A stretch of DNA of 64,000 nt from a virus, in the IMG/VR virus record IMGVR_UViG_3300030117_004232, positions 1-64,000 of that record; one strand, given 5' to 3'. The notes below the pieces were generated by a model. That model had not been told where the DNA came from, ran no database searches, and was given only the letters and a program-made list of their open reading frames with translations. Numbering within the stretch: the stretch's first letter is position 1; every line of letters starts with the position of its first letter. The translations under genes and the position numbers were made by a program. Below are positions 24,987 through 55,027 of this stretch, in pieces.

Positions 24987-24987
24987 T

Positions 24988-27900: not shown

Positions 27901-30900
27901 CCAAGTGACAGAACTCGTTTTAGTCAAGGGTCTAGGTTAGAAGACGTGGCATTTGGTGGTAACTCAGCAACTATCGAACATTTACTCAGTCGAGGGCGAG
28001 TGTTATCATTTGGCGAAGACAACTATGGGAACTCTACACTGAGGGCGCACGGTTTGATTTCTGACATCTCCGCAGCCAGTGTAAACGTCAAGGGTGATGC
28101 AGCCCCTGATTCTCACATTGTCAAGGAAATTATGCCGGGTGCGCCGGTTGTTGCAGTGACATTGGGTGGCCCCGGACAAGGTGCCATCAACACCAAAGAA
28201 ACGTGGCAACCAAGCCCTACTGCAAGATTGGCATGGAATACGCGTCGAGACTGCACGACCCTCATTACTGCCTACAATACCAGTACGATTACAGTCAAGG
28301 CTCTCAATAACAGAGCAGACGATTTGGCTTCTTGGGGAACCTATTGCTTCCCAAAGATTGGTAGAGTGTACATCGGATTGAAAGATGATGTTACGGGTAG
28401 GATGCGTTACGCTTCGGCGGAATATGCAAGCAAGAATGCAACTACATTCACATTCGATACAGGGGCTGCCGCTGGAAGAGGAACGGGCCTGTTCCTCGAT
28501 TTTGACGGAAATGAAGAAGCGCGATTTACAGATTGGTACGCCACAATCATTGCTGAAGCGGATACTTCTAGCACTGGTTTGGTCGGACTAATGTTATCGA
28601 TTGACGATAAATTCTCAGAGGAATCAATGTGCAGCGATGGTACCACCATCAATGACCGTTTGTTCCAGACACTAGACACTGTCAGTCACGATTACCAATT
28701 GGGTAGTCAATATGCGAGTACACGCGCATTGGTCGAAATCCCACTGTTTGAAGAATTTTTCTTTGAGAATCACGACAAGGGTGTTTTCCCCGGACCTGAC
28801 AACAGTATGAAAATTCACATTGATTGTACACATACTGCACACACTTGGGCACCAAACCCAGTTGGGCGTAGATTTGAAGCCGTATCGCCCAAAGACCCAG
28901 AGGTATTTGCTGCGTTTTCATATACGATTGGCAACCAAACGCATCAGCCGGGAACAAAGGTTTCTCAGCCCTATGATGTGAGTAATCATAGAGTTCACGT
29001 AGAAGATTCAGATATATTTCCAATTGCTTCTGCTGCGCCTATTGCAGTGGCTGGAATCAACGGTAGCGCTCGTTATCGACGTGCCTTCTTGAGTTCAGGA
29101 GAGTGGTGCATTTATGTTGCAAAAGACCAGTCTTCTACTGTTTCTTTGGAATTAGCGGGCTCAGCAGGTGATACTTGGTCAATGTCCAAGAATTTCCTTA
29201 GAGACTTGACTGTAGGCGCATTGCTTACTCCTGCACCCGGCTACCAAGACATGAATTATCGGTCGATTGCGGACAACCCTGAGTTAATTAGTGCGGGTTA
29301 CGAAGGGCGGCGGTCTTTCTACTATGACCGCTCAAACGCAATGACTCAAGGTGGAAATGTTGACTATGGACTTCGTCAGTACGTATCGGCTGTAGAATTT
29401 AGAGCAGGACCTAAGACAAATCCACATTTAGATAGAATACAAAACAAGCGAGCCCGTTCTAAGGTAGTCGCCACTACGTCTGGTGGAGGTGGTGTCGTTG
29501 CAACCATTACTGTGGAAGATGCGTCACTGTTCCCTACAGATACTCCAAATGCGTTGTATGGTTATCGATTGGCTTGGAGAGATACAGGTGGTACGATTCG
29601 ATATGGTACCTACACTACTCGTAAGCCAAATGCCAACCTCATGACAGTAACTTCTACAGAGACAACTCACCCTGCTGTCGGGGATGAAGTATACATTGAG
29701 AGCCTATACGCACTGTCTGCATCGACTTGGCCCCGCACAATTGATGGTTTCCTCAGCCGAGCATGGGCATATCCCTACGCACCCGGTGGACTACGTGATG
29801 GAGATACTGTATGGATGAATATGCACTACACCAATCCACACGCCATGGAAGGCTTGTTCTGTAAAAGTAGAGGTACTCTGGACGAAGGTAAGGTGTGGAC
29901 AGGATTTAATGGGGGCATGGGTGCGTTACATGCAACCAATCCGAGAGATAGTATCCCACTGGAAAATTTCTTGATTGGCAATACTTGTGTCGAAACGGCT
30001 CAGAACTTTGTTCAACACGTCAACAAATCAGTTGAACTTCATCATACTGCAATGGGCGTCGCTTCACCAGCGGATAAAAGCCCGATGGTTGCATATATCG
30101 ACCCATACCAAAGTACAGACGAATTTACCCGAGTTTTACTGTATGATGTGGCCCACGACCGGGAGTTCATCGCCTTCCAAGACCTTTGGATGCAAGTACA
30201 ATCGAGTGCAGATGCAACCAAGATTGGGGCAGCACCAAGTCACACTGGTGGTGTAATTCTCAACACCGATGCTAATTCTGGCTCGTGGTTGGATGTTCCT
30301 GCTGGGTTTGCCAGCCAAAGTCCATATCTGAACAGTACAACCCAATCCGATTTCATCGAAACGGCTTACTGCCACGCTAGTACTTGGAACGCTTCTAACA
30401 CAAGCGCTGGAGGTGTCAAAGGTCTGGGTATACATCGACCACAAATCCAAACTTCTTCCTTTGGTGTCTATGCTCCTAGAACAAATCCAGCAGTAGTTGA
30501 TTCAGCATCTGCTGCGACTAAACACGATGAGGTTGTCAAGGACCAACGAGAGCAATCTACATTCTTTGATACGCCTGATGGTACTCGTTGCATACCTGCT
30601 TTCCTTGCACTAAAAGGTATTCGGGCTACTACGTTGGATTTAACCAACCACAAAGAAAATCATTCTTCACACGGGCGAGGACTCAATAGTCACCCACACT
30701 GGACACAAATGGATTTCACTCGTAGACTGACGATTGATTTTGGTGAAGTTTCACTTAGAGATGGAGTAACGGATATTGAGTCTGCTGCTAGAGAAGTTGT
30801 ACGCATGATTAACCAAGCGGGTGCGAAGAATGGGCGGACGCACGCTCGCCTTCATTCCGACTTTTCGGCTACTGCATCGACACATGACCCTGCTCCTTTT

Positions 30901-33900
30901 TGGGCCCCTGAACAAGCGTTTGCTAGTCTTGATAGAGGAACACACATGGGGTATGTTCGTGCGCATCTCGGTCGTGTATCTATCGATTCATCAGACCCAG
31001 AAAACAAAGGGTTCAGTATTGTTATTCACAGTACTGTCCCCGGTGCATCCGGTCGAAACTTCTGTACTTGGCTTGATAACTCCAAGGCTCAGAGCCCATA
31101 TCGTCCAGAATACATGATTGGGCACGGCGGGCGCTTCCGTAATTACTGGTGCCAACCAGATGAGGTAACTGGGGAAAACATGCACCCAGCACCCATGCCA
31201 ATCAACAGGCATGGTCGCCCATTTGCTCCAATTACAACTCTCAAGGAGTTCTTGCCACCTGAAGAGTTGAATGACCAAATGATGAACAATTTAGACCTCG
31301 GGCCAGAAACACAGGCAACTGCATTGTTTGCATCTACCAACGAAGAGTCCAGCACAGGGCGTAATTACAATTCTGTTGCAAACGAATCCTTTGAGACAAA
31401 GAGTCCGGCTGGTACTCTGATTGACGGACTACGCGTTGGTACGAAGGCCAAGGCTCGCATCAACTTTGGCGGCATGACCATGGCCGGTATTCCCGGCTGG
31501 GCACCAGATGCTGGTAAGTGGGGCTTTGGTAGAGATGGAGAGAATCCAAGATTCGATGCAATTTATGGTGTAGGTGTCAATAATGCTACAATCAAGGCTA
31601 CTTCTTTGAATTTAGACAATAGTGCTGACAGATATATTCCATTAGATGATATGCAGAGTCAAAACATTGGGGATGGAAATTTATACGGTATTCGCTTTGT
31701 TGACCATCGTGGTGATTCCCACACCATCCGTATGGTGTATCGTCAGTATGGAGAAAGATTCGCTAATGATTTAACTACTCTACCGCCATCAATCGATGAT
31801 GAACTTATCATTCATTTCGATGACAGAGATGTAGCACAAGGTGGGTTCACCATTGGGCAACACATGGCTGGAACAGGTGAGGTTACGGGCAACATGACCA
31901 ATGGTACGGCCTCTTCTTGGAAAGGTAACTTGTGGAACAATTACCCAGCGCGTAATGTCGGGATTAGAGTTTCAACATCGATAACTGGAAGCGGTAGTGC
32001 AAGACAACTCACTCTAACACTGCAAGACCCGTATCAGAGTGGCGGAAATTTCAGCCATCCAGATGTGCTTGGTTATTTGGGCTTCCCAAAGAAAGACGGC
32101 ATGATTCAACTGTCAGATGATGGCGGGCATCTTGGTCTGACTTTCTCCTATAGTAGTCGGACAACTGGGGGTGTCGGTAGCACTGTTCGATTCTATGGCG
32201 TTGTAGGTGGGTTTGCTGGATATGACGAAACTGATGCTAACGAAGATTGGATTCTCAGTCCACGCATCAATTTCACAAGTGTACTGACCGATGAAGTGAT
32301 TGCTGCTGCTGTAGAGTATGCGATGAAGTTAGACAACGTCAACAGTGATGACTTGAATGTTACTAGTTTCGATTGCACCTCTATGTTTGCACCTGATGGT
32401 CGCACATTGAAAGAGTGGGGTGTAAGCCCAACTGCTATTCGTATCAGAACCAAGTCAGATGCATCTATTCCCCTTAACAAATTGTTTGAGGTTAGCAGAG
32501 AGAAAGACTGGGGCTTGGTTGAAGGTGCCAGTAGCGACACTGCTGTTGGTAGTCATCACACAGGCGGTCTGTCAAACTCTGAGCGCGATGCCGGAACTCG
32601 ACTGGATGTAGGTTACATCCCTGAAACTGTATTGCACATTACAACGAAGTATAGAGGGTCCAATGCTAATACTGCAACTCCTGTACTTGTAGACAATCAG
32701 AACAATGTGGTCGATACAGGACTTTGGCGAAGAAATCTTCGTGGTGAAAATTACACAGATGTCGCTGGGGACCACATTATTCCGCGAGTAGACAGCCCGA
32801 TGGTTAAGATTGACTCTGATACATCGACTACTCTCGTATTGGCAAGCAATGAGTATGTATTCTTAGCAGGTGCACCTTCGACGACGGCTGGTACAGGTCG
32901 ATGGGGTGAGCGATTTACACTTTGGTTCGGGTCTGAGGAGTATGGTACTGTCGCAGGTACAGATGAGGATACGCTCACCTTTGCAGCAAATGATGGTACT
33001 TCATCGGGCTTTACCAATGGAAACATTGACCAAAATGACATCTTGATTAAGAATGGCGGCCCTGTTCACAAAGCCAAGCAAATAGATGGTATTCGTAGAG
33101 CCGGTAGTAAACTGTCAAGTCCATTTCTTTACTTCCGTGGTGGAAGAGATAGTGCTGACCACTGGGTTCCATTGTTCTTCGGAGGTGGTTTCTCTGGTGT
33201 TGTTATGGACATCAATGATGGCACGGAAAATGATTACTCGGACTTCTATACCCATCCTTACGCTGCTGGACCCACTGGTGCATGTGGATTGCAAAATGCA
33301 GGCGAAATGTCAACCGCGTTTTCTCTACTAGACACGAATGCAATGCTGGCCATGTTCCCCGGAACACCATACCTTGACCAGCACAAAGGTCAGAATAATC
33401 CACCTTTCTTCAACCAAGATGCCATCTTACCGTTTGATATGACCAAGGGTGGTAATGCTAAGGTAACTGGGGTAGATTATACAGATGGGACCAACACTGT
33501 AACTGTAACTGTACCCAGCCCAATTGTCATCAAATTTGCTAGTGCAAATGCTAGATACTCCGCAGCACCAAGCGCAGAACATACAACTTACATGATTTTC
33601 GGCCCCGGCCAATCATTCCCTCACAACTACATGTCTCAAGAGCCACAAGGTTCTGCGATGGTGACCGCAGGCAACGGGTATAGTGCTGTACCTATTGCTC
33701 GCACAGCAGGTGGACTTGCGTTTTTACCAAATGAGTTGGCTAATGGTTCACCAACTCATGCAGGTTTCAATACAGGTGGTGCAGAAGCGCACCTACCTAT
33801 GAGTACTTTCTATCAGAAAAATAACGTGAGTGGCTTCAATTATGTCATGAATTGGGAACCAGCGAAAGGCTTTCCAAATCATCGTTCTTTGAGTGGTGCT

Positions 33901-36900
33901 AGTTCCGTAGGATATTCCAATGTGTTTAGTGACTCTCGATTCTTTACAGGCAAGGCGCCCGGTACGTCTAACTTACCAGTTCATGCACATCCGATGAATC
34001 AACCAATCAGTCTTTACAATTCAGGTACACCAAGAGAAGTCGGGACATCAAATTGGTCGACTACACGGTTTTCTTCAGTGATTTGGCACATGGATGGAGG
34101 CTATCACCCCGGTGGACATTTCTTTGATAATGCGGTGCGCAAAAATCCAATGAATGTTGTGGCAAACGCTGTTTTGTCTGGAAATACAACTAACCAGCAT
34201 AACCCTGCCGCATTTAGGGTAGCAGGACTGTTGGCAACGGCTTACAACGCGGCATTCACCTCACCTCACGAAGAACAACTGTGTGATGATAACATTGTTT
34301 TGGTCGATGCCACTAGAGTGCAGAATGCAGAAGAACTAGGTACAATCCTATCAGCAGCAATCAATACATTCCCCGGTTCTTATGGACTCAAAGCGATTGG
34401 TGGTACATTTATGCCATCGTTCCAAACCGGCACAAATCAAGACCGATATGGTTGGCACAAACTGATTATCGACCACAGTAGTGGATATGTTCCTCACAAC
34501 TCTACCACACCTGCATCTATTACAGTGAAAACTACGATTCCTTCGACTTTACCACAGTATGGTTGGATTCGGATGTCAAGTGGAACTAAGGCTGCCGTGG
34601 CTGCCTATTCGTCATATACGGGTAAGACATTCACTCTGGCTGTAAATTCAGTTATGTCTTCTTCTTCAGGTAATGAGACAAATGCCTACGAGCCAAATAC
34701 TGCCGCAGCAATTACAGATACTGATTTCAATGTGGAAGATGGAGAAGTGTATGTATGGACAAAGGCAGGTACACGAAGACACAACAACGTGTCTGGTACT
34801 ACTTCGCGCGACCACTTATGTCAAGTTCACTTCAATGGACTGATTGATGCTGTAGATAGAACAAAGCCCATAGGCGCAGTTGGTTGGCACGGCGAAGCAT
34901 ATTCTTACTTCAATTCTTACCTAGTTGATTCAGCCTATCCTGCCGGACTTGGTGCTTGGCATCCCTTCCTCGGATTCAGTCCTTATGGTGCTGCTGAAAC
35001 ATGCTTGGGTAGTTCAACACCAGTAGGGGTTGCAGACACTCCAACAGCACTTGCCTCAGAGTTTTGTGTAAATGGCCTATCTTCTCGACACTTGGTAGCG
35101 GTTAGTCGAGAATGTGCTTTGTCCTTGGTAGCATTTTCTGACAGAGATGGTATATTTATGCGAGGAGACAGATTATCAGCAAAATTGGGGTCTGACATTT
35201 CCTACGCCGGTACGGTAATGAATTTGAGTGGGTTTAGCAATTCAAGATTTGAAGCGCCCGCGACAGGTGGACCTCATATTGAAGCACATTTCCACACTGG
35301 ATTTGCTCGACCTACACTAGCAGCAGATTATCCTGCTACTAGTGCTGTTCCAACTGACGCACAACTTCACCGCGCCATGCAATCAGGTGATATGGTACAC
35401 GGAACCACTTGCCAATATCCAACAGGAGACTTGTTTTGGGATGAAAGCGTCGTCAAGTCAAACAACTTCCATGAAGATTTTTCAGATTACGGCGTCGAGT
35501 GTATGGGGGCCACAGCCCACACAGATTACTTGAATACCGCAGTGACTGCTGCTCAGCCTCACCCCGGTTTATACGGTTACTACTCAAAGCGCTCTGCTGC
35601 ACGTAATTTCCTACCAGAACATATTGTATGGAAGCGTATGGATGGTGGAAATCTAACGATGCCTGCTCTTAATGCTCGTGGTTTAGGACAAATGCCACTT
35701 TTCTACGCAAAGGATAGTGGGGCATGGAAGTTAAATGGAGAAAAAATTCTTGGCAACGTAAGGTTTTCATTTGAGACAACAAATGCTTCTATGTTCCCGA
35801 TTATACAAGCACAAGAACTAGCACATCCGCAGTTAGCAGAGCAGTACCCAAGAGAAATTCAACAGGCTTTACTAATTCCAAATGAACAAGAGCAATTCAA
35901 GAGTGTACAAGTCATTGATGATACAGGTCAAGAACATCGCCTTGAAGGTGGTTCTCCACTCGGTACAGTCATACTTGATTTCCGCCATGTTAGTGATAGA
36001 GAAATAGAAGGATTGGCGCCTGCTTTGGCTGGAAGCGGCGTATCTCCCAATATGAAGATTGGATTACCAAACCCAGATGAAATACCGGGCAATGTCATTG
36101 TCCGTTCTGGGTTTGACCGAATCCAAGGCTATCAGAATGAAACAATGGGGTCTGGTGGGCTTCAGCATCCTTCACAGCCAAACCAACAAATTATTGATTT
36201 GTTCAAAAACACGAATGCAGGCCCCCGGTTGTGGCCTTTTTGGGAAAATAACGGATGGGAACACATTAGTCAAGATAGTGTAGATGTTTCCCAACTCAAG
36301 AATATACACCGATTGGATTATCCAGCATCTACAAGTAACGGGTGGGAGGATTCCACTGGAAATGCACCTTTGCAAACTGCCTATGAGCCCCATGACCGAA
36401 GTTTGTATTTCCATGTAACAAGAATGGGCATATCCTCTACCCATCGATATTCTAATGACGAGTTGACTTTCAGTAGTTACAGTGGTACAACAATTACGGT
36501 GGGTTCAGCCCCGGAAGCCACGACTTGGAAAATCGAAAGTGAAAAAAGTGGTGGGCGATGGTTCCTACGAGTCTATGACCCTACGACCAACAAAGGTGTA
36601 ATTGCCAGTTACACAAATACGTCTAGTAGTACCTTTACTGGTGTGGTTTATTCTCCTGATTTTGCTGAGTTTGTCGAAGGTAAGACTGGTTTGAAAGTCG
36701 TGCCTTCTTATTACATGCCTGCTGGTACTACTCGATTCTTTGCATCTCGTCGTTTGCGAGACCACTGCGAGGTTAGCGGCGCCAGTCCAGATGCAGCGCA
36801 AATTGATTGGTTTGCTTTCCATAGTACTTTGCCTGCGGACACAGCCGCTACAGAAAATGTCAGTGACAATCCGTGGTATACTCACTTTACAGAGAGGGGA

Positions 36901-39900
36901 TTAACTCCTATGCCTATCCCGCGTATGGGCCATCATTACGTAACGCCTACAATGGCTATTTTGCCCGGTCACTACGCGCATCCTGCATACCAACGAGTGT
37001 ACGATTTGCACCATGCATGTAGAAGTTCCAATCACAAGCCTATGGTTGATGAATTATTGGGCCTAAAGGCTGCAACAAGGGCTGCCAATGAAACAAGCGG
37101 CGTGCTGGTCAATCATCCTAGTGCTGGGACTTACGCTGTGGGAACAACTGCTATTGCAGTGGATACAGTAGATGCTACGACTAAATTCTCAATTGGTGAC
37201 CGAGTCTATGACAGTGTAGGGACTGAACTAGGATTTGTAGAAGCAGTCGGGGCTAACCTCGTTACCTTGGCCTCTCCGGGTATACCTGTCACCATTGCCA
37301 ACAACGCTGCTCTGTTTATGAGTACGGCGACAACACTTACCCGAGGTATTGGATGGAATCCAGCAGCGTGGTTCTCAACACCTACAGCCACCTATGGTCC
37401 GTCAGATATTCATGGCGGTGCGTTTACTCTGATGACTGAAACCAAGGTCAAGTATGATGGATATGGAATCGCAGCGTCTGCGGGAACTCCCGGTAATACA
37501 AATGCAGCCGGTGGGCACAGTCTTGTTTTGGAAGCAGGCTCGACATATACCCTCAATCATCATTTCCCTGACCCATTGGAAGTGGGCGCGTATCAAATTA
37601 TCATTCAGCCCAATGTATTCGCACAGCAATTTAGTGGATTTCATGTAAATCATGCAACCGAAAATAAAGCCCCGTCTGAAAGTGGAACTAAAGTTACAGA
37701 ATTGACTGGTCAGCAAGTAAACACGGTGATTGCAGTTGAGCAAGATACAGCCACAAATGGTGCTTACACGCTGATTTTAGCAGAAGCGATGATGGCAGAT
37801 GTGCGTGGCTGTGAGGTCATTGTAAACGAAGTAATGTTGGATATTGACCCTGATGTCGGTAGTCAGTTTACGTGCTTACCGCCCATGGCTCTGTATAATC
37901 CTCTAGGTGTTCAAGAAACAGCATCTGCACCATTTACACGACGGAGTTTACCTTACCGACCGGGTATGTTCATTAGTTCTACGCCGGGTAGAACTTTGAC
38001 GATTCCTTGGTGGGGTATGCTGCACAAAGACGGATTGACAGAGGGGCTTATCCAAGGGGATGGACTGAGTGTGACCGCAGGTGGTAGTGGTTACACAGGT
38101 GCCACCAACGTAGCAGTGGGCGGAGGAAGTGGCACTGGTCTTACAGTCAATACCACTGTGAGCACAGGTGCAGTTACCGCAGTTGCTATCCATACGGCTG
38201 GAACAGGCTATCGACTTGGAGATACACTTACCATTAGCGGAGGTGGGAGTGATGCTACACTTAGTGTAGATAGAATCAGTTCAACGGGGTGGAGGCACCT
38301 AGAATGGCACAAGCCAGACAATTACTACGAATTCTGTCGAGCATCTTATGGGTGCGTCGGTGCACAATTGACCTTGGCTGGCTACCCCACCTCTTACATG
38401 GACATCTATGCCAAGTATCGGAACAACCGCTCAGCCAACCCAACTTGTGTTGTACTTTCATTGAGTTCTGGCGGCAAGACGATTACGGTGGACAACAATG
38501 ACTTATTCCCTTCCAGACCACACTATGGAGAGCAGTTAGAATACACCAAGAATGGTATTCGCTTTACTGCAACTTACAACAATCGCACAGGTACGCTTGA
38601 TTATGCTACACTGGGTGTATCGACTATTTTCCAAGGGGTTGAAGGAAGTGCTGATTTCTGGGCAAACTTGGCCGCTAATCAGGTACTCAAACTTACGCGC
38701 CCATACGATACACACCCCTCTGACAGTATCTATCTGGAATCCGATAGTAGCATTGTTACCAGACTTATGGAGAAGCCTTTAGAGATACACAAAGGGAGTC
38801 GTGATACGAACAGTTTGCATCTACCTGATGCATATTTGTGTATGTGGCATCCCAACCTTGGTCGCCCATTCACATGGTATAGTGATACTGCTACTGGTGG
38901 TAGTCGCAACTTCTACACAGCGGCTGGTGCAGCAGACACTCCGGTTGACCAAAAGCCATACAATCACATTCCTGAGCACTTTGAAACCATCCACTATCAC
39001 GATTTCAATTATGCAGCGTCGAAGGGGCCATTTGGATTGGCTATGCGATGGATTGTACCACCTGCTGCTGGCACAGCGCCAACCAACTCAAATGATGGCA
39101 TGACATATACTGCGGCTTTGATTGATGCGGATGCAAACCTTGAGCATCAAGGTGGCACGTCTGGTTCGGACAAGTACAACTTTGCTGGCTTTTGGCCTAG
39201 TGGTAGTCGTGGTGGGCCCGGTGTCAGTCGGCTGGAAATGTACGCAGAAGCCTTGGCAGGCTGGGGTGGCGAAAGTTATGGCATGACTGTTACGACTTAC
39301 ACAGATAGCACAGGCATTGCATCTGCATCAAAGCCAAACAACTTGAACGATGGATTCGGCTATCGGTTTGGTGTAGGCCAAGCCCGAAACCGACCGCGTT
39401 GGGCACCTTATATTCGCGGTTGGTTGGAAGTTGCAAATAGCAATGCTCTACTGGGTTACTATCACGGTCCACTTATCCAACAAGATAACAAGACAAACGG
39501 ATGGGATTATGTTGGTGCAGACGGATTGGCTGATGTGAGCCTAACCGCACTCTACGTGGGTATTTTGGAAAGAATCACACAAGTAAGTTCACTGATGAAT
39601 CAAGACCAGTATGGTCGAAAGGTGCGCTATAGTGATGGTAGGCGGCATACTGCCCCATTCGGCTGTCCTGTCCGCACATTGCGCAATGCCTCAACTGTAC
39701 GTCGGTTGTATCCGGGCGATGATACAGGAAAGGGTGTGACAGAACTCGCCAATGCACATCGTTACTACATTGTTGACTGGTGGGGCAATACCCGTGGTGA
39801 AGATGTCAGACGTTTCCCTGTACGTGGATTCGGTATTCGGCCATCTTGGGACCCCGAAGATGCTTATGCAGACACCAACGTCACTCATCGACCCAAGGAT

Positions 39901-41238
39901 GGTAGTGCGGCGGGCTCAGGGCTTCTGTTCAATGGTGATTATTCAGACAAGTATAGCGGTAACAACAATTACGTCAGTAACACCGCATCTGGTAATATCA
40001 ATGGTGGTGTTGATTGGTTTAACCCAGCCAGTTCACTGCGTGTGGGTGACCGTGGTGATGGACGTGGTTGCCGATGGCCGACTGTGTTTAACGAAAGTCT
40101 ACTTATGGCCGTCAGTGAAACCCACGATGCCTCTGGACTTGTGTTGTCTCACAGCACAGCAGAGCCTGCCTTTGGACAAGGACTCATCCGACCCAGTAAC
40201 TTGGTTTTGCAAGATGGAGAAGTTGAAAGAGGTATCAGTGACCGAGTCGATTTGAATTCCGATGATGGATTGCTGCGACCAAGTGCATCCGTAGGCGAAG
40301 GCTTTGAGACAGTGACTGCGGATACTCGTGGTGCTGAGCCGGTTTCCAGAGATGACTTCAGATTAGGATTAGATGTAGATACGTTGGCTGAACTGAATGA
40401 TGGGACTTCAAGAGAGTACGTGGTTATGTCCACAGAGGCTGCGAGTTTACACACAGACCGTGAAGTCGGTCAACGGACCAATATCAGAGGAGCATACAAT
40501 GTCGCATCTCGCACTCTTACCGATTTGGATATGACTGCGCTTACCTTTGCAGCACAGCCTGTGGCTGGAATCATAAAGCACTCTAATGCACACGCTATGT
40601 GGTCATTGGGCGGAACATACGTCATAGATTGGAGCGTATATTCTGGCGTACTCAACGACAAGGGTTGGGGTAAGGCCGGTGCTTCTTCGTCATCCAATCC
40701 ATATCAGGATTCAAACCACGACCCTACTGTTCAGGCTACGAACACAACTGATTCGACAATACAATTCTTGTATCGCCCACAACAAGTGTTAGATTACAAG
40801 CATTCGCAGATGTTTAGACCCTACATCACACTCAACGGTCCACAGGCTGGGGCCAATTTTTACAAGGCGACAGCAGGAGGGAAATACGGCTTGTTTACCA
40901 GTGATGTACCCAGTGCTCGTACAGGGACGCCCAGTTCGCCTCCATACGCGCCCGTGTACACCATGGTGCCAACCTCTAGTACCACCGTGCCCGATAGCAT
41001 GGGACCAAAGATTCAGGGTGTGGATGTTACGGGATACAACAAGGCCGACATCCGCAGCCCTGTAGCACGCATGCTAATGAGTGAGAACACACTAGAACAT
41101 TTCAGGTCTGACGCGAGCAGAACAGATGGTACTGGTGAAGGTGATTACACTGTTCAGCCAAGGCACAGTCAAACTTTGCACCCGAAGGGTAGCGATGGCG
41201 ATGCATCTTATAACACAGGAGACCATAGCGGGGAGTGA
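24988..41238 (+). CDS. Giant (~5400 aa) virion/tail protein with N-terminal LamG-like domain and repeated beta modules
   Basis: Uninterrupted 16.2-kb ORF; YALKFNG, FTLETWF, MYVNG, FRGTIEAV, GLWRFEE LamG-like motifs; repeated TV(E/D)xxxxFP modules; T/S/G-rich. Confidence 0.75.
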   Translation: MTIMIDPGYALKFNGITDGVLIPASQHTLHGTDTQDDKQLPSALSSFTLETWFIPDSGGSVFEYENIMRLTVGTPSSPAPAQFEINLKNIAAGTIESHVLTSAKPVYGIDGSFTHWDGTLFPHPALEEHNSFLATDAGSNDLTALNEGHRELLNVTVVFNRKYIVMYVNGDIVAAKEFDEDHEVVLTPSRMFLGGRGGEFRGTIEAVHLSRGSKDSGKADFAPIKSDDTIGLWRFEEPIEPISLITTTPSISASTGASSSINIGATAAQALIDELSGQSGLTAINFTTTSPWTDMGQYSVKVHTATSFATRTIPKVPYNILVNPLGYTSTTGKATNKAPERLRLMAIDASAGTITVESIHLDFASNSTDGRRGALQAHDAGRFVVITGDCIVDGGNGNEYQPQGSGTQFSHRQGQVVIDESRFENHGLMFSMTMANRDVPENKFSAYTTNPGSGFLMGHSGRHTLNHVKSHPFMGILPVPSDYIVDKKIDATADVISATFESQYSDIKDTVPPNSIVSAFSTHGPVNIKPTIHTSFVTRVCENGMSDISDSSRGLLAVGGPGFNPIPFALKALNSPDALNPTGSVAEHLIPSSESRIAILNVPSLSTYNYAPFVQIHYNAIDHTGAAFTTCAASRITGTSNATTVTVQSIKSFGKDGETFPANELYIGTTPASTAQKATNTVTLHHGTKQLRFSASTDSAFQSADVADAVVRRLIGGPSLMVTKTVPDVSTIVTGSTSILDLIHTDLGTNPLAVYAPGGIIEFDIPDNFPFNDGDLEGDSSEGVVAEEVLDFSLTPAAYLPLHSSDSPQTTPRLISTAKTELTGQNSVFNRIIVKQNFNPLGLSENGDLLTANTSTGRSRSTGVFINNGGGYSSSTTGAMTVDGNNATHHIKTGDILYKLDGTVVGTVTGVTSTSVTASAGTSSAVVDNEELFTSPPSPTRGNTNQSTAVHEIFDIIEHTSHNGKARLIVQPSDRTRFSQGSRLEDVAFGGNSATIEHLLSRGRVLSFGEDNYGNSTLRAHGLISDISAASVNVKGDAAPDSHIVKEIMPGAPVVAVTLGGPGQGAINTKETWQPSPTARLAWNTRRDCTTLITAYNTSTITVKALNNRADDLASWGTYCFPKIGRVYIGLKDDVTGRMRYASAEYASKNATTFTFDTGAAAGRGTGLFLDFDGNEEARFTDWYATIIAEADTSSTGLVGLMLSIDDKFSEESMCSDGTTINDRLFQTLDTVSHDYQLGSQYASTRALVEIPLFEEFFFENHDKGVFPGPDNSMKIHIDCTHTAHTWAPNPVGRRFEAVSPKDPEVFAAFSYTIGNQTHQPGTKVSQPYDVSNHRVHVEDSDIFPIASAAPIAVAGINGSARYRRAFLSSGEWCIYVAKDQSSTVSLELAGSAGDTWSMSKNFLRDLTVGALLTPAPGYQDMNYRSIADNPELISAGYEGRRSFYYDRSNAMTQGGNVDYGLRQYVSAVEFRAGPKTNPHLDRIQNKRARSKVVATTSGGGGVVATITVEDASLFPTDTPNALYGYRLAWRDTGGTIRYGTYTTRKPNANLMTVTSTETTHPAVGDEVYIESLYALSASTWPRTIDGFLSRAWAYPYAPGGLRDGDTVWMNMHYTNPHAMEGLFCKSRGTLDEGKVWTGFNGGMGALHATNPRDSIPLENFLIGNTCVETAQNFVQHVNKSVELHHTAMGVASPADKSPMVAYIDPYQSTDEFTRVLLYDVAHDREFIAFQDLWMQVQSSADATKIGAAPSHTGGVILNTDANSGSWLDVPAGFASQSPYLNSTTQSDFIETAYCHASTWNASNTSAGGVKGLGIHRPQIQTSSFGVYAPRTNPAVVDSASAATKHDEVVKDQREQSTFFDTPDGTRCIPAFLALKGIRATTLDLTNHKENHSSHGRGLNSHPHWTQMDFTRRLTIDFGEVSLRDGVTDIESAAREVVRMINQAGAKNGRTHARLHSDFSATASTHDPAPFWAPEQAFASLDRGTHMGYVRAHLGRVSIDSSDPENKGFSIVIHSTVPGASGRNFCTWLDNSKAQSPYRPEYMIGHGGRFRNYWCQPDEVTGENMHPAPMPINRHGRPFAPITTLKEFLPPEELNDQMMNNLDLGPETQATALFASTNEESSTGRNYNSVANESFETKSPAGTLIDGLRVGTKAKARINFGGMTMAGIPGWAPDAGKWGFGRDGENPRFDAIYGVGVNNATIKATSLNLDNSADRYIPLDDMQSQNIGDGNLYGIRFVDHRGDSHTIRMVYRQYGERFANDLTTLPPSIDDELIIHFDDRDVAQGGFTIGQHMAGTGEVTGNMTNGTASSWKGNLWNNYPARNVGIRVSTSITGSGSARQLTLTLQDPYQSGGNFSHPDVLGYLGFPKKDGMIQLSDDGGHLGLTFSYSSRTTGGVGSTVRFYGVVGGFAGYDETDANEDWILSPRINFTSVLTDEVIAAAVEYAMKLDNVNSDDLNVTSFDCTSMFAPDGRTLKEWGVSPTAIRIRTKSDASIPLNKLFEVSREKDWGLVEGASSDTAVGSHHTGGLSNSERDAGTRLDVGYIPETVLHITTKYRGSNANTATPVLVDNQNNVVDTGLWRRNLRGENYTDVAGDHIIPRVDSPMVKIDSDTSTTLVLASNEYVFLAGAPSTTAGTGRWGERFTLWFGSEEYGTVAGTDEDTLTFAANDGTSSGFTNGNIDQNDILIKNGGPVHKAKQIDGIRRAGSKLSSPFLYFRGGRDSADHWVPLFFGGGFSGVVMDINDGTENDYSDFYTHPYAAGPTGACGLQNAGEMSTAFSLLDTNAMLAMFPGTPYLDQHKGQNNPPFFNQDAILPFDMTKGGNAKVTGVDYTDGTNTVTVTVPSPIVIKFASANARYSAAPSAEHTTYMIFGPGQSFPHNYMSQEPQGSAMVTAGNGYSAVPIARTAGGLAFLPNELANGSPTHAGFNTGGAEAHLPMSTFYQKNNVSGFNYVMNWEPAKGFPNHRSLSGASSVGYSNVFSDSRFFTGKAPGTSNLPVHAHPMNQPISLYNSGTPREVGTSNWSTTRFSSVIWHMDGGYHPGGHFFDNAVRKNPMNVVANAVLSGNTTNQHNPAAFRVAGLLATAYNAAFTSPHEEQLCDDNIVLVDATRVQNAEELGTILSAAINTFPGSYGLKAIGGTFMPSFQTGTNQDRYGWHKLIIDHSSGYVPHNSTTPASITVKTTIPSTLPQYGWIRMSSGTKAAVAAYSSYTGKTFTLAVNSVMSSSSGNETNAYEPNTAAAITDTDFNVEDGEVYVWTKAGTRRHNNVSGTTSRDHLCQVHFNGLIDAVDRTKPIGAVGWHGEAYSYFNSYLVDSAYPAGLGAWHPFLGFSPYGAAETCLGSSTPVGVADTPTALASEFCVNGLSSRHLVAVSRECALSLVAFSDRDGIFMRGDRLSAKLGSDISYAGTVMNLSGFSNSRFEAPATGGPHIEAHFHTGFARPTLAADYPATSAVPTDAQLHRAMQSGDMVHGTTCQYPTGDLFWDESVVKSNNFHEDFSDYGVECMGATAHTDYLNTAVTAAQPHPGLYGYYSKRSAARNFLPEHIVWKRMDGGNLTMPALNARGLGQMPLFYAKDSGAWKLNGEKILGNVRFSFETTNASMFPIIQAQELAHPQLAEQYPREIQQALLIPNEQEQFKSVQVIDDTGQEHRLEGGSPLGTVILDFRHVSDREIEGLAPALAGSGVSPNMKIGLPNPDEIPGNVIVRSGFDRIQGYQNETMGSGGLQHPSQPNQQIIDLFKNTNAGPRLWPFWENNGWEHISQDSVDVSQLKNIHRLDYPASTSNGWEDSTGNAPLQTAYEPHDRSLYFHVTRMGISSTHRYSNDELTFSSYSGTTITVGSAPEATTWKIESEKSGGRWFLRVYDPTTNKGVIASYTNTSSSTFTGVVYSPDFAEFVEGKTGLKVVPSYYMPAGTTRFFASRRLRDHCEVSGASPDAAQIDWFAFHSTLPADTAATENVSDNPWYTHFTERGLTPMPIPRMGHHYVTPTMAILPGHYAHPAYQRVYDLHHACRSSNHKPMVDELLGLKAATRAANETSGVLVNHPSAGTYAVGTTAIAVDTVDATTKFSIGDRVYDSVGTELGFVEAVGANLVTLASPGIPVTIANNAALFMSTATTLTRGIGWNPAAWFSTPTATYGPSDIHGGAFTLMTETKVKYDGYGIAASAGTPGNTNAAGGHSLVLEAGSTYTLNHHFPDPLEVGAYQIIIQPNVFAQQFSGFHVNHATENKAPSESGTKVTELTGQQVNTVIAVEQDTATNGAYTLILAEAMMADVRGCEVIVNEVMLDIDPDVGSQFTCLPPMALYNPLGVQETASAPFTRRSLPYRPGMFISSTPGRTLTIPWWGMLHKDGLTEGLIQGDGLSVTAGGSGYTGATNVAVGGGSGTGLTVNTTVSTGAVTAVAIHTAGTGYRLGDTLTISGGGSDATLSVDRISSTGWRHLEWHKPDNYYEFCRASYGCVGAQLTLAGYPTSYMDIYAKYRNNRSANPTCVVLSLSSGGKTITVDNNDLFPSRPHYGEQLEYTKNGIRFTATYNNRTGTLDYATLGVSTIFQGVEGSADFWANLAANQVLKLTRPYDTHPSDSIYLESDSSIVTRLMEKPLEIHKGSRDTNSLHLPDAYLCMWHPNLGRPFTWYSDTATGGSRNFYTAAGAADTPVDQKPYNHIPEHFETIHYHDFNYAASKGPFGLAMRWIVPPAAGTAPTNSNDGMTYTAALIDADANLEHQGGTSGSDKYNFAGFWPSGSRGGPGVSRLEMYAEALAGWGGESYGMTVTTYTDSTGIASASKPNNLNDGFGYRFGVGQARNRPRWAPYIRGWLEVANSNALLGYYHGPLIQQDNKTNGWDYVGADGLADVSLTALYVGILERITQVSSLMNQDQYGRKVRYSDGRRHTAPFGCPVRTLRNASTVRRLYPGDDTGKGVTELANAHRYYIVDWWGNTRGEDVRRFPVRGFGIRPSWDPEDAYADTNVTHRPKDGSAAGSGLLFNGDYSDKYSGNNNYVSNTASGNINGGVDWFNPASSLRVGDRGDGRGCRWPTVFNESLLMAVSETHDASGLVLSHSTAEPAFGQGLIRPSNLVLQDGEVERGISDRVDLNSDDGLLRPSASVGEGFETVTADTRGAEPVSRDDFRLGLDVDTLAELNDGTSREYVVMSTEAASLHTDREVGQRTNIRGAYNVASRTLTDLDMTALTFAAQPVAGIIKHSNAHAMWSLGGTYVIDWSVYSGVLNDKGWGKAGASSSSNPYQDSNHDPTVQATNTTDSTIQFLYRPQQVLDYKHSQMFRPYITLNGPQAGANFYKATAGGKYGLFTSDVPSARTGTPSSPPYAPVYTMVPTSSTTVPDSMGPKIQGVDVTGYNKADIRSPVARMLMSENTLEHFRSDASRTDGTGEGDYTVQPRHSQTLHPKGSDGDASYNTGDHSGE

Positions 41239-41243
41239 GTAGT

Positions 41244-41693
41244 ATGACACCGATGGATAAGGCTTGGTTGATTTTAAAGCGCCAGACTACACTTGGCGAG
41301 TTTCATCCTGACTTTCCTAGTCCTTATGGTGACCATATTATGTATTATCACGGTACCACTGCGCCTCGTGCTCAACAAATGCTTTCCGATAAACTCCATG
41401 CTAATCGTGGAGTTCACGGCACTGGTGCGTATGTAACCAGTGACTACGATAAAGCGAAGAAATATGCTGATAGGCGTGCATACTCGGACAAAAAACCTCA
41501 TCTGTGGAATGAGGGAATGCAAGAGTTAGATGAGTCGGCACCAATGGTATTAGGAATACGAGAAAGGGCGTTCGATGATTTAGGCAAGCCGACCACTGTT
41601 ATGGGAACAGATGATTGGATGGAGGAGGGTTATTTTCCACAGGGGATTCCTCCTCAGTATTTAACACGCCTCCCTGAAAATTACAATTGGTGA
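41244..41693 (+). CDS. Putative ADP-ribosyltransferase (H-Y-E/PARP-like fold) with N-terminal leader and PIP-like motif
   Basis: YYHGT, HGTGAYVTSDYDKAKKYA and distal acidic EEGY match the NAD-binding ART pattern; alternative GTG start at 41235. Confidence 0.65.
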   Translation: MTPMDKAWLILKRQTTLGEFHPDFPSPYGDHIMYYHGTTAPRAQQMLSDKLHANRGVHGTGAYVTSDYDKAKKYADRRAYSDKKPHLWNEGMQELDESAPMVLGIRERAFDDLGKPTTVMGTDDWMEEGYFPQGIPPQYLTRLPENYNW

Positions 41694-51216: not shown

Positions 51217-52211
51217 GCTTCGGCCTCCCATGCTTTGCGATATTCTTCGGGGTCATCGCTTCCATCCCATGCAGGGCAGATACCCTTGAATGAACAGTAT
51301 GAACATCTACCTTGACTTGGGTTAGTCTCAAAGTTGTTTGTCAAGTAAGCCATGAGCAGAGCATCGACCATGCGTCGAACTTTCTTGGCATAGTCGTTAT
51401 GGCGACGACCTGTGCATGGTTCGTACCAAATACGATTGGTGGACTTCTGCTCATATCCCCACTTGTTCATTGAAGGGACTTCGACATGGTCACCTGACGG
51501 ATAGACCCAGCCCCAGTGCGTCACATCTTGGTATTCGTGGTCGCACAGTTCAAGCAGTTTCTTGTAGAACATCATCTCAGTGCGCATCGACTTGACCTTG
51601 AAGTCTGAATCAATCCAGTTGCCATCCTTCAGAGTTTTTATCCATTTACCTGTCTTCAATTCCATGAGGGCTACTGAACCTTCAGGTGTGCGGAATCCTC
51701 GGTCAATCATACCCGCATAGTGTACAGGAATGGTGATGGTTTCACCATTGAACTCAATGGTTTCATCAGTGAATCCGTGTAGTTCCAATTCGTTGATGAT
51801 GGGTAGGAATCGTGTGACTCCATCCCCAAGTAATCGGTCGAGGTCTATCTCTAATCGTGAATCAATCGCTGCCTGCTCGCCCAACACATAGGACTCTTCA
51901 GGTACAGGGAGGGCCTTCTGAAAGAGTTCCATGGCCTCATCCCTTTTGTTGGCTTGCAGCAAGTCATACGCCTTTTGGACATACGGAACGACGTTGACAT
52001 AGAAGCCTTCGATTGCATCGTGGACATTCGTACCCTTTGTCATCGCATCAGAGCCGGGTTCCGGTAACTTGTGTATGCGCTTGTATTCATACTGCTTAGG
52101 GCAGTAATCGAAATCACTCGTCAGGCTCGACTTGGTGATGCGTAGGTACTTCTCGTGCCCCGGCTTCCATTGGTATGTGGATTTGGCGTATTGCTTGAAG
52201 TCCCTAGCCAT
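51213..52211 (-). CDS. Cas4-like PD-(D/E)XK exonuclease with Fe-S cysteines
   Basis: CPKQY, GTNVH, GMIDR, ELKTG, CSYCSFKGIC. Confidence 0.85.
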   Translation of the reverse strand: MARDFKQYAKSTYQWKPGHEKYLRITKSSLTSDFDYCPKQYEYKRIHKLPEPGSDAMTKGTNVHDAIEGFYVNVVPYVQKAYDLLQANKRDEAMELFQKALPVPEESYVLGEQAAIDSRLEIDLDRLLGDGVTRFLPIINELELHGFTDETIEFNGETITIPVHYAGMIDRGFRTPEGSVALMELKTGKWIKTLKDGNWIDSDFKVKSMRTEMMFYKKLLELCDHEYQDVTHWGWVYPSGDHVEVPSMNKWGYEQKSTNRIWYEPCTGRRHNDYAKKVRRMVDALLMAYLTNNFETNPSQGRCSYCSFKGICPAWDGSDDPEEYRKAWEAEA

Positions 52212-52444
52212 CAGATGTTCCCCCTGTATTTTCGCTTCTCACTCTTCATGCCCACACGCTCAGTCGTGTTGACTGGTATCATGTCTGGGTCGAAGTCGGT
52301 GAGTTTGCTCTGAGTCTCCGGTACAAAGATGTTCGGGTCGAATTCATCCAGTGTGGTCTGCCTTGTTGTAATGCCACCGCATTGGCAGTATTGCTTACGC
52401 TCAGATATTTCTGGCTTCTTTCTGAATCTGTCAAACCACTTCAT
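52211..52444 (-). CDS. 77-aa protein with two PIP-box-like repeats
   Basis: QTTLDEFDPNI and QSKLTDFDPDM; GGAGGG RBS; coupled on both sides. Confidence 0.55.
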   Translation of the reverse strand: MKWFDRFRKKPEISERKQYCQCGGITTRQTTLDEFDPNIFVPETQSKLTDFDPDMIPVNTTERVGMKSEKRKYRGNI

Positions 52445-52633: not shown

Positions 52634-55027
52634 TCACCCATACCTCTTCGGTCGTGCTGCACCTGCTGCGAAATCTAGATTCCAATTCAGTGCGTTGAAT
52701 ATACTCTTAACCTTGGACTTGACCAACTTGTCCACCATCGTGTCATAGTCAAGTGTGTAACCCGCCAAGTCTGCCTCCTCACGATATGCGACGATGTCTG
52801 TCTTTGGCAAGCCATCCGGTACGCCACTGACATACACCCAGTTTACGCTATTTCCCTCACCCATGCGCTCGGACTTACCTTTCGCAATGTGTTCGTTGTA
52901 GTAACGTGCGCCCTTAACGCCCGGTACGCCCGCACTAGGGGCATACTGATTGAGTTTCTTTTGGATGCGGGTGGTGCCTGTGATTTCTGATATATCGACA
53001 TCGCCTCTAGCAATTCGCTTGGATAGTGGGCGCACCATATCAATGACCTCATCCTCATCTGCACCTGTGCAAACGGCTGTCAGTACATCGTTCTCCAAAT
53101 TCTTGGAGATGGGAGCGAGCGTGCTGATTTTACCAAACCGAGCAGACTTGACTTTGCCCTCATCTTCGGGTGGCCAAGAGCAGATGCCATAGTACAGGTT
53201 CTTCCCTGCAACCAACCAGTAGGGCATGTATGCCTCAAACTCTACGATGAGTGCGTGCTCTTGGTAGCGTCGTTGAATCTCTTCAGTCAGATGCTTAGCG
53301 AGTGCAGGTGCCTCGTCGAATGGCACTTTGACAAAGGCAGAGTCCGTGTGCCCGTATAGGGCCTCGTAGCCCTGTGCCTGCGACTCTTCCATGAGGAACT
53401 TGATAGCGCGACGACCGCAGGCTGTGATTGCACTGGCGATGTCAAAGTCTGACCAACCCCAGTGTGCAGATGCAGTCATCCCGTAGAAAGAGGCCATGAC
53501 ACGCTTCACTGCAAGTTGCATGGTGTTCCATCCCTTTCTCTCAGTTTCTGTCGCAGACTCTTTCATTTTCTTCTTGTACATATCACGGAGGTCAAACATC
53601 TCAGTCACAATACGTGGAAGCAGGCCCGGTTCACCCTGTTGCCAACAAGTACCATCAGGTAACTCATGTACATCATCGTCGTTGGCTCTACCTTTGGGCA
53701 CGCGTGTCTCCCATGAGAAGTTGTGACTAAGGATAAGGCTCGGGTACAGACCCTTGTAATCTAAACACGCTACGCCTTCATAGCGCCCCGGTGTGGGTGG
53801 TGGAATGTATGCACCTTCGTACTCTTGCTTCTCTTGTTGAGAGCGAGTCGGTGCTTTCCAATGTGTGCGCCTCGACAGGAGGCCCCGCGCAAACCGAGTC
53901 ACGTTGTGACAAGATGTGAACGAAACGCCTGTGATTCGTTGGAGTGATAAGTAAAAGTTCAGAACGTGATTTTCCTCATCTATTTTTTTGAGGAGGAGGA
54001 CATCCTGCATACAGTATGCGACGTAATCATCGAAGCGGTCATACCATCCCGTATGTACGTCCATCTCAAACTTTCCACCATAGCCAAGAGTCTCAGCAAT
54101 GGTGTTCAATTTGAGGTTCTTGAGTTGGGGTTGGCCACTGTCTTTCCATACCCGCTCAAAGCCAGTCCCACTTCTCAGCGGGGCCGCTGTGTCGAAGCAA
54201 AGTCGACCGCAAATCGGCTGTGCTGTGTAGTCATATCCTCGGTTCCCTTGAGGTGGTCTGAGCACTCTTCCGAGTGGACTTAGTCTCCTAAACTCAGGGA
54301 AACGCCTGACAATGTGGGGAAGGTCGGCCCACATTATCGCATGTGCAACGAAGATGTCAGGGTTGCATTCTTCCAGATATTCAAAGAATGCTTGGTACAT
54401 AGATTCCTCATCCATGTACAGATGTTGTTCGTATGTGAAGTGGTGGCGAATCCCATCTTCGTCAGTGTTATCGACTTCGACATTTTCTATAGAAACCAAA
54501 CCATTCTCATCTACTTCTCCCAAATCTTTGGCTCGATAATTGGATGATTCTGACCAACAGAAAACTACATTCCTTTCGTTGTAACTATCTGTGACGGCCA
54601 TGACGGTCGTGAAATCCTTCTTTGGGTCCCACTCAAGGTCAAAGTGCCAAACGCGGGGCTTCCACTCAGGCATTTCATCTATAGAATCAATGAGGTATCT
54701 GTCTGTCAAACTGAGGTCACCCTCCCACGTTTGGCCGAATTCCTTGGTCATCTCCCTGATGTCCGTCGTTCTATAGGCGTAGACCTTGACCAACTCTTCA
54801 TTTGTCCGCAACGCCTGAGCACGGTCATACCAGTCGATAGACGAGCCCGGATACCGAGCAAGCGCACGGTCTATAATTCTCTGAGGGGTGCTGGCCTTAA
54901 TCCAGAAGTAAGGTTGGAAGTCTTCGACCACCTCTTCGATGAGGTTTCCATCAGCGTCACGCCACCGTTTGTAGATGTGGTCGGGACCTTCTGGGTCTGG
55001 TCTGAAGACATCGATAATCATGTTCAA
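52634..55027 (-). CDS. polB: Family B DNA polymerase with proofreading domain
   Basis: ExoI FDLE, ExoIII YCMQD; motif A DYKGLYPS, B KRVMASFYG, C YGHTDS; KNLYYG. Confidence 0.95.
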   Translation of the reverse strand: MNMIIDVFRPDPEGPDHIYKRWRDADGNLIEEVVEDFQPYFWIKASTPQRIIDRALARYPGSSIDWYDRAQALRTNEELVKVYAYRTTDIREMTKEFGQTWEGDLSLTDRYLIDSIDEMPEWKPRVWHFDLEWDPKKDFTTVMAVTDSYNERNVVFCWSESSNYRAKDLGEVDENGLVSIENVEVDNTDEDGIRHHFTYEQHLYMDEESMYQAFFEYLEECNPDIFVAHAIMWADLPHIVRRFPEFRRLSPLGRVLRPPQGNRGYDYTAQPICGRLCFDTAAPLRSGTGFERVWKDSGQPQLKNLKLNTIAETLGYGGKFEMDVHTGWYDRFDDYVAYCMQDVLLLKKIDEENHVLNFYLSLQRITGVSFTSCHNVTRFARGLLSRRTHWKAPTRSQQEKQEYEGAYIPPPTPGRYEGVACLDYKGLYPSLILSHNFSWETRVPKGRANDDDVHELPDGTCWQQGEPGLLPRIVTEMFDLRDMYKKKMKESATETERKGWNTMQLAVKRVMASFYGMTASAHWGWSDFDIASAITACGRRAIKFLMEESQAQGYEALYGHTDSAFVKVPFDEAPALAKHLTEEIQRRYQEHALIVEFEAYMPYWLVAGKNLYYGICSWPPEDEGKVKSARFGKISTLAPISKNLENDVLTAVCTGADEDEVIDMVRPLSKRIARGDVDISEITGTTRIQKKLNQYAPSAGVPGVKGARYYNEHIAKGKSERMGEGNSVNWVYVSGVPDGLPKTDIVAYREEADLAGYTLDYDTMVDKLVKSKVKSIFNALNWNLDFAAGAARPKRYG

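Follow-up and report, generated by a model that had tools for sequence, protein, structure and literature searches.

In phage T4, the ADP-ribosyltransferase (ART) Alt and the internal proteins IPI-III, which bear a capsid targeting sequence (CTS), represent a group of unrelated proteins marked by a short N-terminal peptide, the ART among them being encoded together with the head and late genes. The route described for T4 consists of loading into the prohead, optional trimming by the prohead protease and injection with the DNA (PMC3012670; PMC9503650), and phage ARTs are often head-packaged and encoded beside morphogenesis genes (PMC9503650; PMC5512222). By analogy, a comparable route is proposed here for a 149-residue ART-fold protein of an archaeal virus, encoded within the 64,000 nucleotides (the window in the following) that make up positions 1 to 64,000 of the 73,968-bp viral record IMGVR_UViG_3300030117_004232 of IMG/VR. 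Its gene lies in the late operon of what is, judged from its gene content, a magrovirus-like tailed virus of Poseidoniales archaea. Our explanation, which we favour only tentatively and as a whole, is that of a late-operon magrovirus ART carrying two separable address peptides, namely a tag at the very N-terminus and a following linear motif resembling the clamp-binding PCNA-interacting protein (PIP) box. What is new is that a virion-module ART of an uncultured archaeal virus group combines a shared tag, hitherto undescribed, with a clamp-like docking peptide, viral ART effectors as such being already known.

As in T4, the ART gene is found with the late genes and the N-terminal peptide on unrelated proteins, with 107 N-terminal tags on unrelated open reading frames (ORFs) of related loci and one copy in the record itself. 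Alt, however, belongs to the R-S-E (VIP2-like) ART branch, whereas the 149-residue protein matches the KptA, PARP and exotoxin A types. Furthermore, in contrast to the CTS, to which it shows no sequence relation, the tag also occurs internally and C-terminally and stems from a virus with an archaeal host.

The ART-PolyVal domain (PF18760; Iyer et al. 2017, PMC5512222) matches the protein weakly over the half from HGT to G-x-Y-x-T, and relatives of the protein are found as domains in multi-domain virion-module proteins, as in the polyvalent proteins. On the other hand, the score is below threshold, the 149-residue protein stands alone, and the repetition of a tag between the domains of its polyprotein relatives has not been described for polyvalent proteins. 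KptA/Tpt1 and PARP16, which share the HGT strand, are the best structural (KptA) and the best sequence-profile match (PARP16), respectively. Nevertheless, the N-terminal nucleic-acid-binding lobe of KptA/Tpt1 with most of its R-H-R-R tetrad is missing, only chain residues 92-180 being aligned, and the helical and membrane parts of PARP16 have no counterpart in the 149-residue protein.

With PIP-box partners, including TIP, a small PCNA binder from archaeal mobile elements (PDB entry 5da7, which is among the matches of the viral clamp), the protein has in common a Q-x-x-L-x-x-F core within a disordered stretch. This core fits the tails of the host PolB, FEN1 and PolD, and a 77-residue protein of the viral replication module carries two copies. 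Unlike the boxes of these partners, the predicted motif is N-proximal and internal, is followed by a conserved x-P-D/N-hydrophobic extension and lacks the second aromatic residue, which is also missing from the host tails. Encapsulin cargo-loading peptides, finally, are likewise short and conserved, reside at either terminus of unrelated cargo and dock inside an HK97-fold shell, but they have no sequence relation to the tag and the shell would here be a true viral capsid, so that they offer a mechanistic analogy only.

The modular N-terminal tag

The start codon was assigned to ATG 41244 and not to the alternative GTG 41235, since all homologues begin with M-x-P. On direct reading of the sequence, the ORF and all motifs quoted for it in the original prediction are present, namely YHGT (residues 35-38), GTGAYVT (59-65), AKKYA (71-75), EE (127-128) and the PIP-like QTTLGEF (residues 14-20, 41283-41303); in the ART pattern as quoted, the residues are correct but the spacer after Thr65 is one residue short. 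An alignment of 28 homologues with 27-61% identity to the 149-residue protein gives a mean column identity of 0.73 for residues 1-12, 0.91 for residues 13-30 and 0.37 for residues 31-149, the invariant columns including Pro3, Trp8, Leu11, Lys12, Arg13, Gln14, Leu17, Gly18, Glu19, Phe20, Ser26, Gly29 and Arg106. The N-terminal 30 residues are much better conserved than the enzyme and consist of two separable pieces.

The first of these, residues 2-12, is a real, conserved and modular tag with the consensus x-P-M/F-D/E-x-A-W-x-L/I-L-K, which in the AlphaFold (AF2) model forms a helix over residues 3-14. In a survey of 65 related IMG/VR loci recovered with the ART family, it was found on 137 distinct ORFs in about 74 sequence clusters, a positive outcome of the check suggested in the original prediction, namely to look for the leader on different cargo in related viruses. 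While 107 tags are N-terminal (ORF residues 2-3), 36 are internal and 7 are located in the last 25 residues, some of them with just two residues after the tag. In the larger homologues the tag is repeated up to five times per protein, with [ST]-G/S-E-P before each copy and a different domain behind it, including an ART, a CCA/poly(A)-polymerase domain and a lysine-rich K-H-K-L-E-Y-D-K domain; multi-domain tagged relatives also gave a sub-threshold GNAT-like match. Tags are most densely packed in a locus with 14 of them in 20 kb, and four loci contain four consecutive tagged genes. Most of the tagged cargo is without a Pfam family, a scan of 66 such proteins having returned HD_4 (three proteins), DUF6321 (two), DUF5872 (two), one zinc ribbon and one probable chance match. 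The capsid proteins of the tagged contigs are 79-99% identical to that of the window, and in most loci the tagged ART is situated directly ahead of a gene for a 547-residue protein, followed by that for a 393-residue protein and the thermosome. The tag is not mentioned in the magrovirus literature searched, which included the first description of these viruses.

According to the original prediction, the leader ends in a hydrophobic residue followed by lysine, like candidate protease sites in the head proteins. This resemblance turned out to be weak. With a position matrix built from the 107 tag variants, the NPEATFRILK sequence at the domain boundary of the S78 prohead protease scores 0.6 as opposed to 31.1 for the real tag and ranks 8th of 23,883 positions, and the E-L-L-K of the capsid protein is not among the top 20; the claim that tag and protease site are the same was therefore dropped. 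The protease junction itself, N-P-E-A-T/S-F-R/S-I-L-K-E-D, shows no variation among those related loci that were examined, with freely varying sequence directly after it, and the capsid protein contains an invariant G-S-E-L-L-K at residues 29-34. The S78 protease (11060-12439, + strand) is fused to an acidic, coiled C-terminal region of ~280 residues, which may be a scaffold.

Since C-terminal tags can have only two residues after them, binding and not cutting would be the core function of the tag. Its best reading is a capsid address of the T4 CTS type, from which we infer packaging. This reading is based on the presence of the tag on many unrelated late-operon proteins, on its occurrence at polyprotein junctions, which recalls the virion-embedded polyvalent proteins, and on the literature, according to which packaging is common among phage ARTs encoded next to morphogenesis genes (PMC9503650; PMC5512222). 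In the proposed mechanism, residues 2-12 would form an amphipathic helix that is common to dozens of unrelated accessory proteins and polyprotein junctions and that most likely binds one common partner, presumably the procapsid interior, and the tagged proteins would travel in the virion, trimmed or untrimmed, like the internal proteins of phage T4. The link to protease sites is weakened by the near-zero matrix score of the protease boundary, and the C-terminal tags would suit a peptide that binds rather than one that serves for cleavage only. Against this part of the explanation stands the finding that the record itself holds a single tagged gene and thus no visible set of cargo.

Alternatively, the tag may be an address to another partner, such as the viral thermosome or a host factor, or a polyprotein-processing signal only, and the ART would act late in the cell instead of being injected. 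In its favour are the thermosome gene, which lies 3.4 kb downstream in conserved synteny, and the weak resemblance between the tag and the sites in protease and capsid protein; the internal copies at polyprotein junctions suggest processing. However, the tagged genes belong to the late operon and share its strand with the morphogenesis genes, the C-terminal tags with just two residues after them argue against a pure cleavage role, and packaging into the head is common for phage ARTs with this type of gene neighbourhood (PMC9503650). This alternative is considered somewhat unlikely.

The linear motif of residues 13-30

The second piece, residues 13-30, is the best-conserved part of the entire protein, as far exceeding the catalytic core in column identity as given above, which bears out the expectation that the PIP-like stretch would be kept in homologues. 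In the AF2 model it connects the tag helix with strand 1 as a coil with pLDDT values (predicted local distance difference test) of 53-67. It is not found in distant ART homologues, the similarity of which begins at about residue 29. Gln14, Leu17 and Phe20 fit the PIP consensus Q-x-x-[LIM]-x-x-[FY]-[FY], position 8 being occupied by His.

For comparison with the host, the C-termini of replisome proteins were taken from four Poseidoniales/Thalassarchaeaceae genomes, which were reached via their thermosome. PolB ends in N-R-Q-A-T-L-F-S-F or Q-A-N-L-F-S-F, FEN1 in G-G-Q-T-S-L-F-D-F, RNase HII in N-L-L-D-Y and the DP2 subunit of PolD in V-Y-T-L-D-D-F-L/S. We take these tails to be PIP boxes, in line with established work in other archaea. 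Their consensus is R/G-Q-x-T/S-L-x-x-F with a single aromatic residue, and the viral QTTLGEF fits it.

The peptide also recurs outside the ART. The only other strict motif matches in real ORFs of the record are the two copies in the 77-residue ORF, which is placed between PolB and the PD-(D/E)XK nuclease gene. As the codons of these copies differ from those of the ART copy at most synonymous sites, the peptide itself is taken to be under selection. Both motifs are kept in three close relatives of this ORF, with Phe replaced by Trp in one of them; the ORF is absent from the relative L154, the neighbouring nuclease of which is 60% identical, and the motifs can thus be checked in close relatives only. 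The 77-residue ORF comprises little beyond the two tandem PIP-like peptides and a basic tail, and its product is a candidate for a small protein that binds or blocks a clamp. Behind the tag of non-ART cargo the motif is found as RQSTLWGYDPKM and AQTTLDQWG, and T-R-Q-T-T-L-D-E-F-S-D is located in a proline-rich, disordered stretch of another ORF. Residues 13-30 thus behave like a portable linear motif and resemble the clamp-docking tails of the host. The idea of a PIP box is hereby more than a guess and has become a reasonable hypothesis, which we regard as possible, if still short of probable.

In the proposed mechanism this disordered motif, the core of which would copy a host PIP box, docks the ART on a sliding clamp, and the docked enzyme would modify a replisome-bound protein or a nucleic-acid end. 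Cleavage of the leader behind Lys12, as proposed in the original prediction, would leave the motif at the new N-terminus. The PolB, RFC, primase and nucleases of the virus were searched for canonical PIP boxes, and none was found. Since the viral PolB and RFC are without the motif, any clamp bound by it would more likely be host PCNA than the divergent clamp of the virus. A complex prediction with three viral clamps and ART residues 1-40, calculated without controls, gave no answer (score 0.03, mark 0.32) and is counted neither way.

A number of observations weigh against clamp docking. Position 8 of the PIP consensus is not aromatic, although the tails of host PolB, FEN1 and PolD likewise end at the first aromatic residue, and Phe20 is replaced by His in several relatives. 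The host boxes are located at extreme C-termini, whereas the viral one is N-proximal and followed by a conserved HPDFPSP, the conservation reaching well past the PIP core. Neither PolB nor RFC of the virus carries the motif, as mentioned. Moreover, the spacing between motif and HGT strand is fixed (~14 residues) in all ART homologues including the internal domains, and such a constant distance would likewise agree with an extension of the ART subfamily that is structural or binds the substrate.

Residues 13-30 may indeed be such an integral N-terminal extension, either a lid over the NAD+/substrate site or a strap, in which case the likeness to a PIP box would be coincidental. The constant spacing to the HGT strand in every ART homologue, polyprotein domains included, is then to be seen together with the distance of the tag from the motif, which varies between 0, 6, 7, 15 and ~60 residues; conservation of FHPDFPSP-x-G well past the core and a likeness to the L-G-x-x-H-P-D helix-cap turn of TPR_12 repeats, seen with protein P0072 and described below, point in the same direction. 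Contrary to this, the extended peptide occurs twice, with different codons, in a 77-residue ORF without any ART domain as well as in non-ART cargo, it is missing from distant ART homologues, it is modelled as a low-confidence coil and it matches four host PIP tails. On balance an integral extension is not very probable.

The explanation by two address peptides can be carried further to a combinatorial code, in which a capsid-loading helix would provide entry into the virion and a host-mimicking PIP peptide would park the cargo on host PCNA after injection. The KptA/PARP-like ART would then ADP-ribosylate the clamp, proteins bound to it or DNA ends with a 5'-phosphate and thereby shut down host replication, while the virus would rely on its own divergent clamp and a PolB without the motif, the 77-residue protein acting as a second clamp blocker. 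This full version is rather improbable. The magrovirus literature searched contains no mention of ADP-ribosylation, nor, in the part of it searched for this, of PCNA-targeting. Were the two-address explanation correct, it would be the first concrete hypothesis for the takeover of host replication by magroviruses, the shared tag would correspond, in an archaeal virus, to the CTS of T4, and it would serve as a handle for finding the set of injected effectors of an uncultured virus group. If the alternatives hold, the protein would be one more fast-evolving viral ART with an unknown target.

Fold and active site of the ART domain

An exhaustive HMMER search yielded 79 relatives of the 149-residue protein, including tandem-domain proteins, one of which (P0048) matches the PARP catalytic domain of Pfam with an E-value of 4.7e-36. 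A profile of the 28 homologues finds PARP16 as best match (E 0.0056), followed by exotoxin A and Tpt1. In the PARP16 alignment, Y-H-G-T falls on the His strand, with His36 equivalent to His152, and G-A-Y-V-T on the Tyr strand, with Tyr63 equivalent to Tyr182. The AF2 model (pLDDT 76) was compared with 48,161 representative chains by VIA-align, and all of the 50 best matches belong to the ART superfamily, with KptA (9ld3_A, Z 10.1, root-mean-square deviation 2.8 Å for 88 residues) and Tpt1 (7kw9_A, Z 8.4) on top and exotoxin A, cholix toxin, Arr, heat-labile enterotoxin (LT) and DarT as further matches. The top match of Foldseek is Tpt1 as well (E 4e-3, probability 1.00). The ART fold claimed from the motifs is borne out by both structural comparisons and by the PARP16 profile match; as judged from the predicted model, the fold of residues ~30-149 and the NAD+-site residues are established.

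Direct family searches with the ART sequence remained below threshold in all cases, namely with Pfam ART-PolyVal and DUF3990, with phrog_4700 and in a single-sequence search of the PDB. The ART-PolyVal match amounts to 18.5 bits (E 0.0037) over profile positions 4-47 of 140, the curated threshold being 31.2 bits. A tblastn search of the ART against 50,697 GenBank phage records gave no match.

Among the 28 relatives Arg106 is strictly conserved, His36 is kept in 27 and Tyr or Phe is found at position 63 in 25. The third catalytic position is placed at or beside residue 138 in I-P-P-Q-Y-L, with the register coming from weak alignments to a PARP-like homologue (…G-Y-D-T-A-W-C-P-P…L-E-E-D-C-V) and to PARP16 (I-P-P-K-Y-F-V). 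The C-terminal I-P-P-x-Y/F-L ending is one that we take to be Tpt1-like. The 'distal EE' of the original prediction is present at residues 127-128 but kept in only 5 of the 28 relatives. Residue 138, a Gln in this protein, is more likely to be the third catalytic position, for which the relatives have Glu in 15 cases and Gln in 12. A Gln at the place where the catalytic Glu is usual counts against the favoured explanation. A catalytically weakened or inactive ART, the Gln138 copy of which binds NAD+, ADP-ribose or a partner instead of transferring, would agree with this Gln, shared by 12 of the 28 relatives, and with the alignment of residue 138 to the Glu of the L-E-E-D-C-V strand, beside the third-triad Tyr of PARP16, but is distinctly unlikely in view of the intact His36, Tyr63 and Arg106, of the alternation of Glu and Gln inside a single close clade, comparable to ART families in which only the acceptor changes, and of the best structural relatives KptA/Tpt1, which function without the third-position Glu. 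Within the tentatively favoured two-address explanation, the protein would be a small NAD+-dependent ADP-ribosyltransferase that consists of a single domain and belongs to the H-Y-E/KptA-like branch.

Among the tagged ORFs at L004:234-965, L032:7077 and L035:814, a second tagged family (…K-A-V-E-F-D…R-P-F-K-A-Y-R-x-I-P…) and variants with P-V-T-M-R-R-x-H-P and G-Y-R-A-I-P resemble ART-derived paralogues with an altered H-G-T histidine strand, and these sequences suggest that the tagged ART cargo may be diversifying rapidly.

Gene order, viral clamp and further observations

Magroviruses infect archaea of Marine Group II (Poseidoniales), which are abundant in the ocean. Every magrovirus encodes a polymerase together with a clamp and its loader, and those of group A also a thermosome (PMC5434244). 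The window is assigned to a magrovirus-like tailed virus of Poseidoniales because its gene content matches this description. The morphogenesis operon on the + strand encodes, in this order, the large terminase, the portal, an 1822-residue protein, the S78 prohead protease, the HK97-type capsid protein, a protein with a weak tube-like match and a LamG-domain protein, followed by a 5419-residue ORF, the 149-residue ART ORF and ORFs of 547, 119 and 393 residues. From 45 kb on, the - strand encodes the thermosome subunit, an ERCC4 nuclease, a primase subunit, the PD-(D/E)XK nuclease, PolB and an RFC-like ATPase. The ART gene is hence part of the morphogenesis operon and lies directly ahead of the oppositely oriented replication module. 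It had been described as lying between tail genes, of which the position within the operon holds; the flanking 5419-, 547-, 119- and 393-residue products have no Pfam or PHROG match and 'tail genes' therefore remains a positional label. Coordinates of the features are collected in Table 1.

Table 1. Features of the 149-residue ART, the prohead protease and the replication module, numbered according to the window.
Feature	Coordinates	Strand	Remarks
149-residue ORF (P0001), tagged ART-fold protein	41244-41693	+	ATG 41244, stop 41691-41693; homologues
Shine-Dalgarno-like GGGGAG, 8 nt 5' of ATG	41230-41235	+	read directly
Residues 1-12, MTPMDKAWLILK: modular tag	41244-41279	+	helix in model (residues 3-14)
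Residues 13-30, RQTTLGEFHPDFPSPYGD: nearly invariant linear motif	41280-41333	+	PIP-like core Q14-F20 at 41283-41303
Residues 31-149: ART-fold catalytic core	41334-41690	+	
His36; Tyr63; Arg106; Gln138	41349-41351; 41430-41432; 41559-41561; 41655-41657	+	ART core
S78 protease and scaffold-like region, domain boundary NPEATFRILK: candidate processing or docking site	boundary 11555-11584	+	weak tag resemblance
77-residue ORF, replication module	52211-52444	-	RQTTLDEFDPNI (core 52340-52360) and QSKLTDFDPDM (core 52292-52312)
Viral sliding clamp, PCNA fold, 253-residue product	55024-55785	-	adjoins PolB
432-residue replication-module protein, no Pfam match	57282-58580	-	C-terminal tail ...GGNTSLNQFGGDQ

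The 5419-residue ORF (24979-41238, + strand) immediately 5' of the ART gene is among the largest genes to be expected in an archaeal virus; neither half gives a Pfam match, and it is a fibre or adhesin by position only. In the tail region of the operon, a 117-residue protein (19397-19750, + strand) clearly contains a DNA-binding domain of the SAP type (Pfam E 2.3e-10), a surprising feature in the company of structural genes.

The product of 55024-55785, named as a possible partner of the ART in the original prediction, has no family match in Pfam or PHROG. Its AF2 model (pLDDT 92.5) nevertheless displays the fold of a PCNA-like clamp, Foldseek retrieving archaeal PCNAs with an E-value of 8e-13, a TM-score of ~0.65 and 13-15% identity; PDB entries 1rxm, 3a2f and 6t7y are among these matches. 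Close by, the 432-residue protein carries a T-S/T-L-x-Q-F motif in its tail behind a Gly-rich linker, and relatives with 55% identity retain D/N-T-S/T-L-x-Q-F at the same place. By its sequence this tail looks like a clamp- or partner-docking tail.

The R-Q-T-T-L-G-E-F-H-P-D stretch of the ART resembles the L-G-E-x-H-P-D-T turn of TPR_12 repeats, as seen with the 835-residue protein P0072. The match was judged a chance similarity, the HMMER E-value being inflated by five repeats; as a sequence likeness it hints at L-G-E-x-H-P-D as a possible helix cap.

Finally, the thermosome on a 9.6-kb contig of a metagenome-assembled genome labelled 'Parvibaculum sp.' (L156, NZQM01000180.1) is 77% identical to the viral one, compared to 40% for Poseidoniales genomes. 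It is probably a magrovirus contig that was mis-binned into a bacterial genome.

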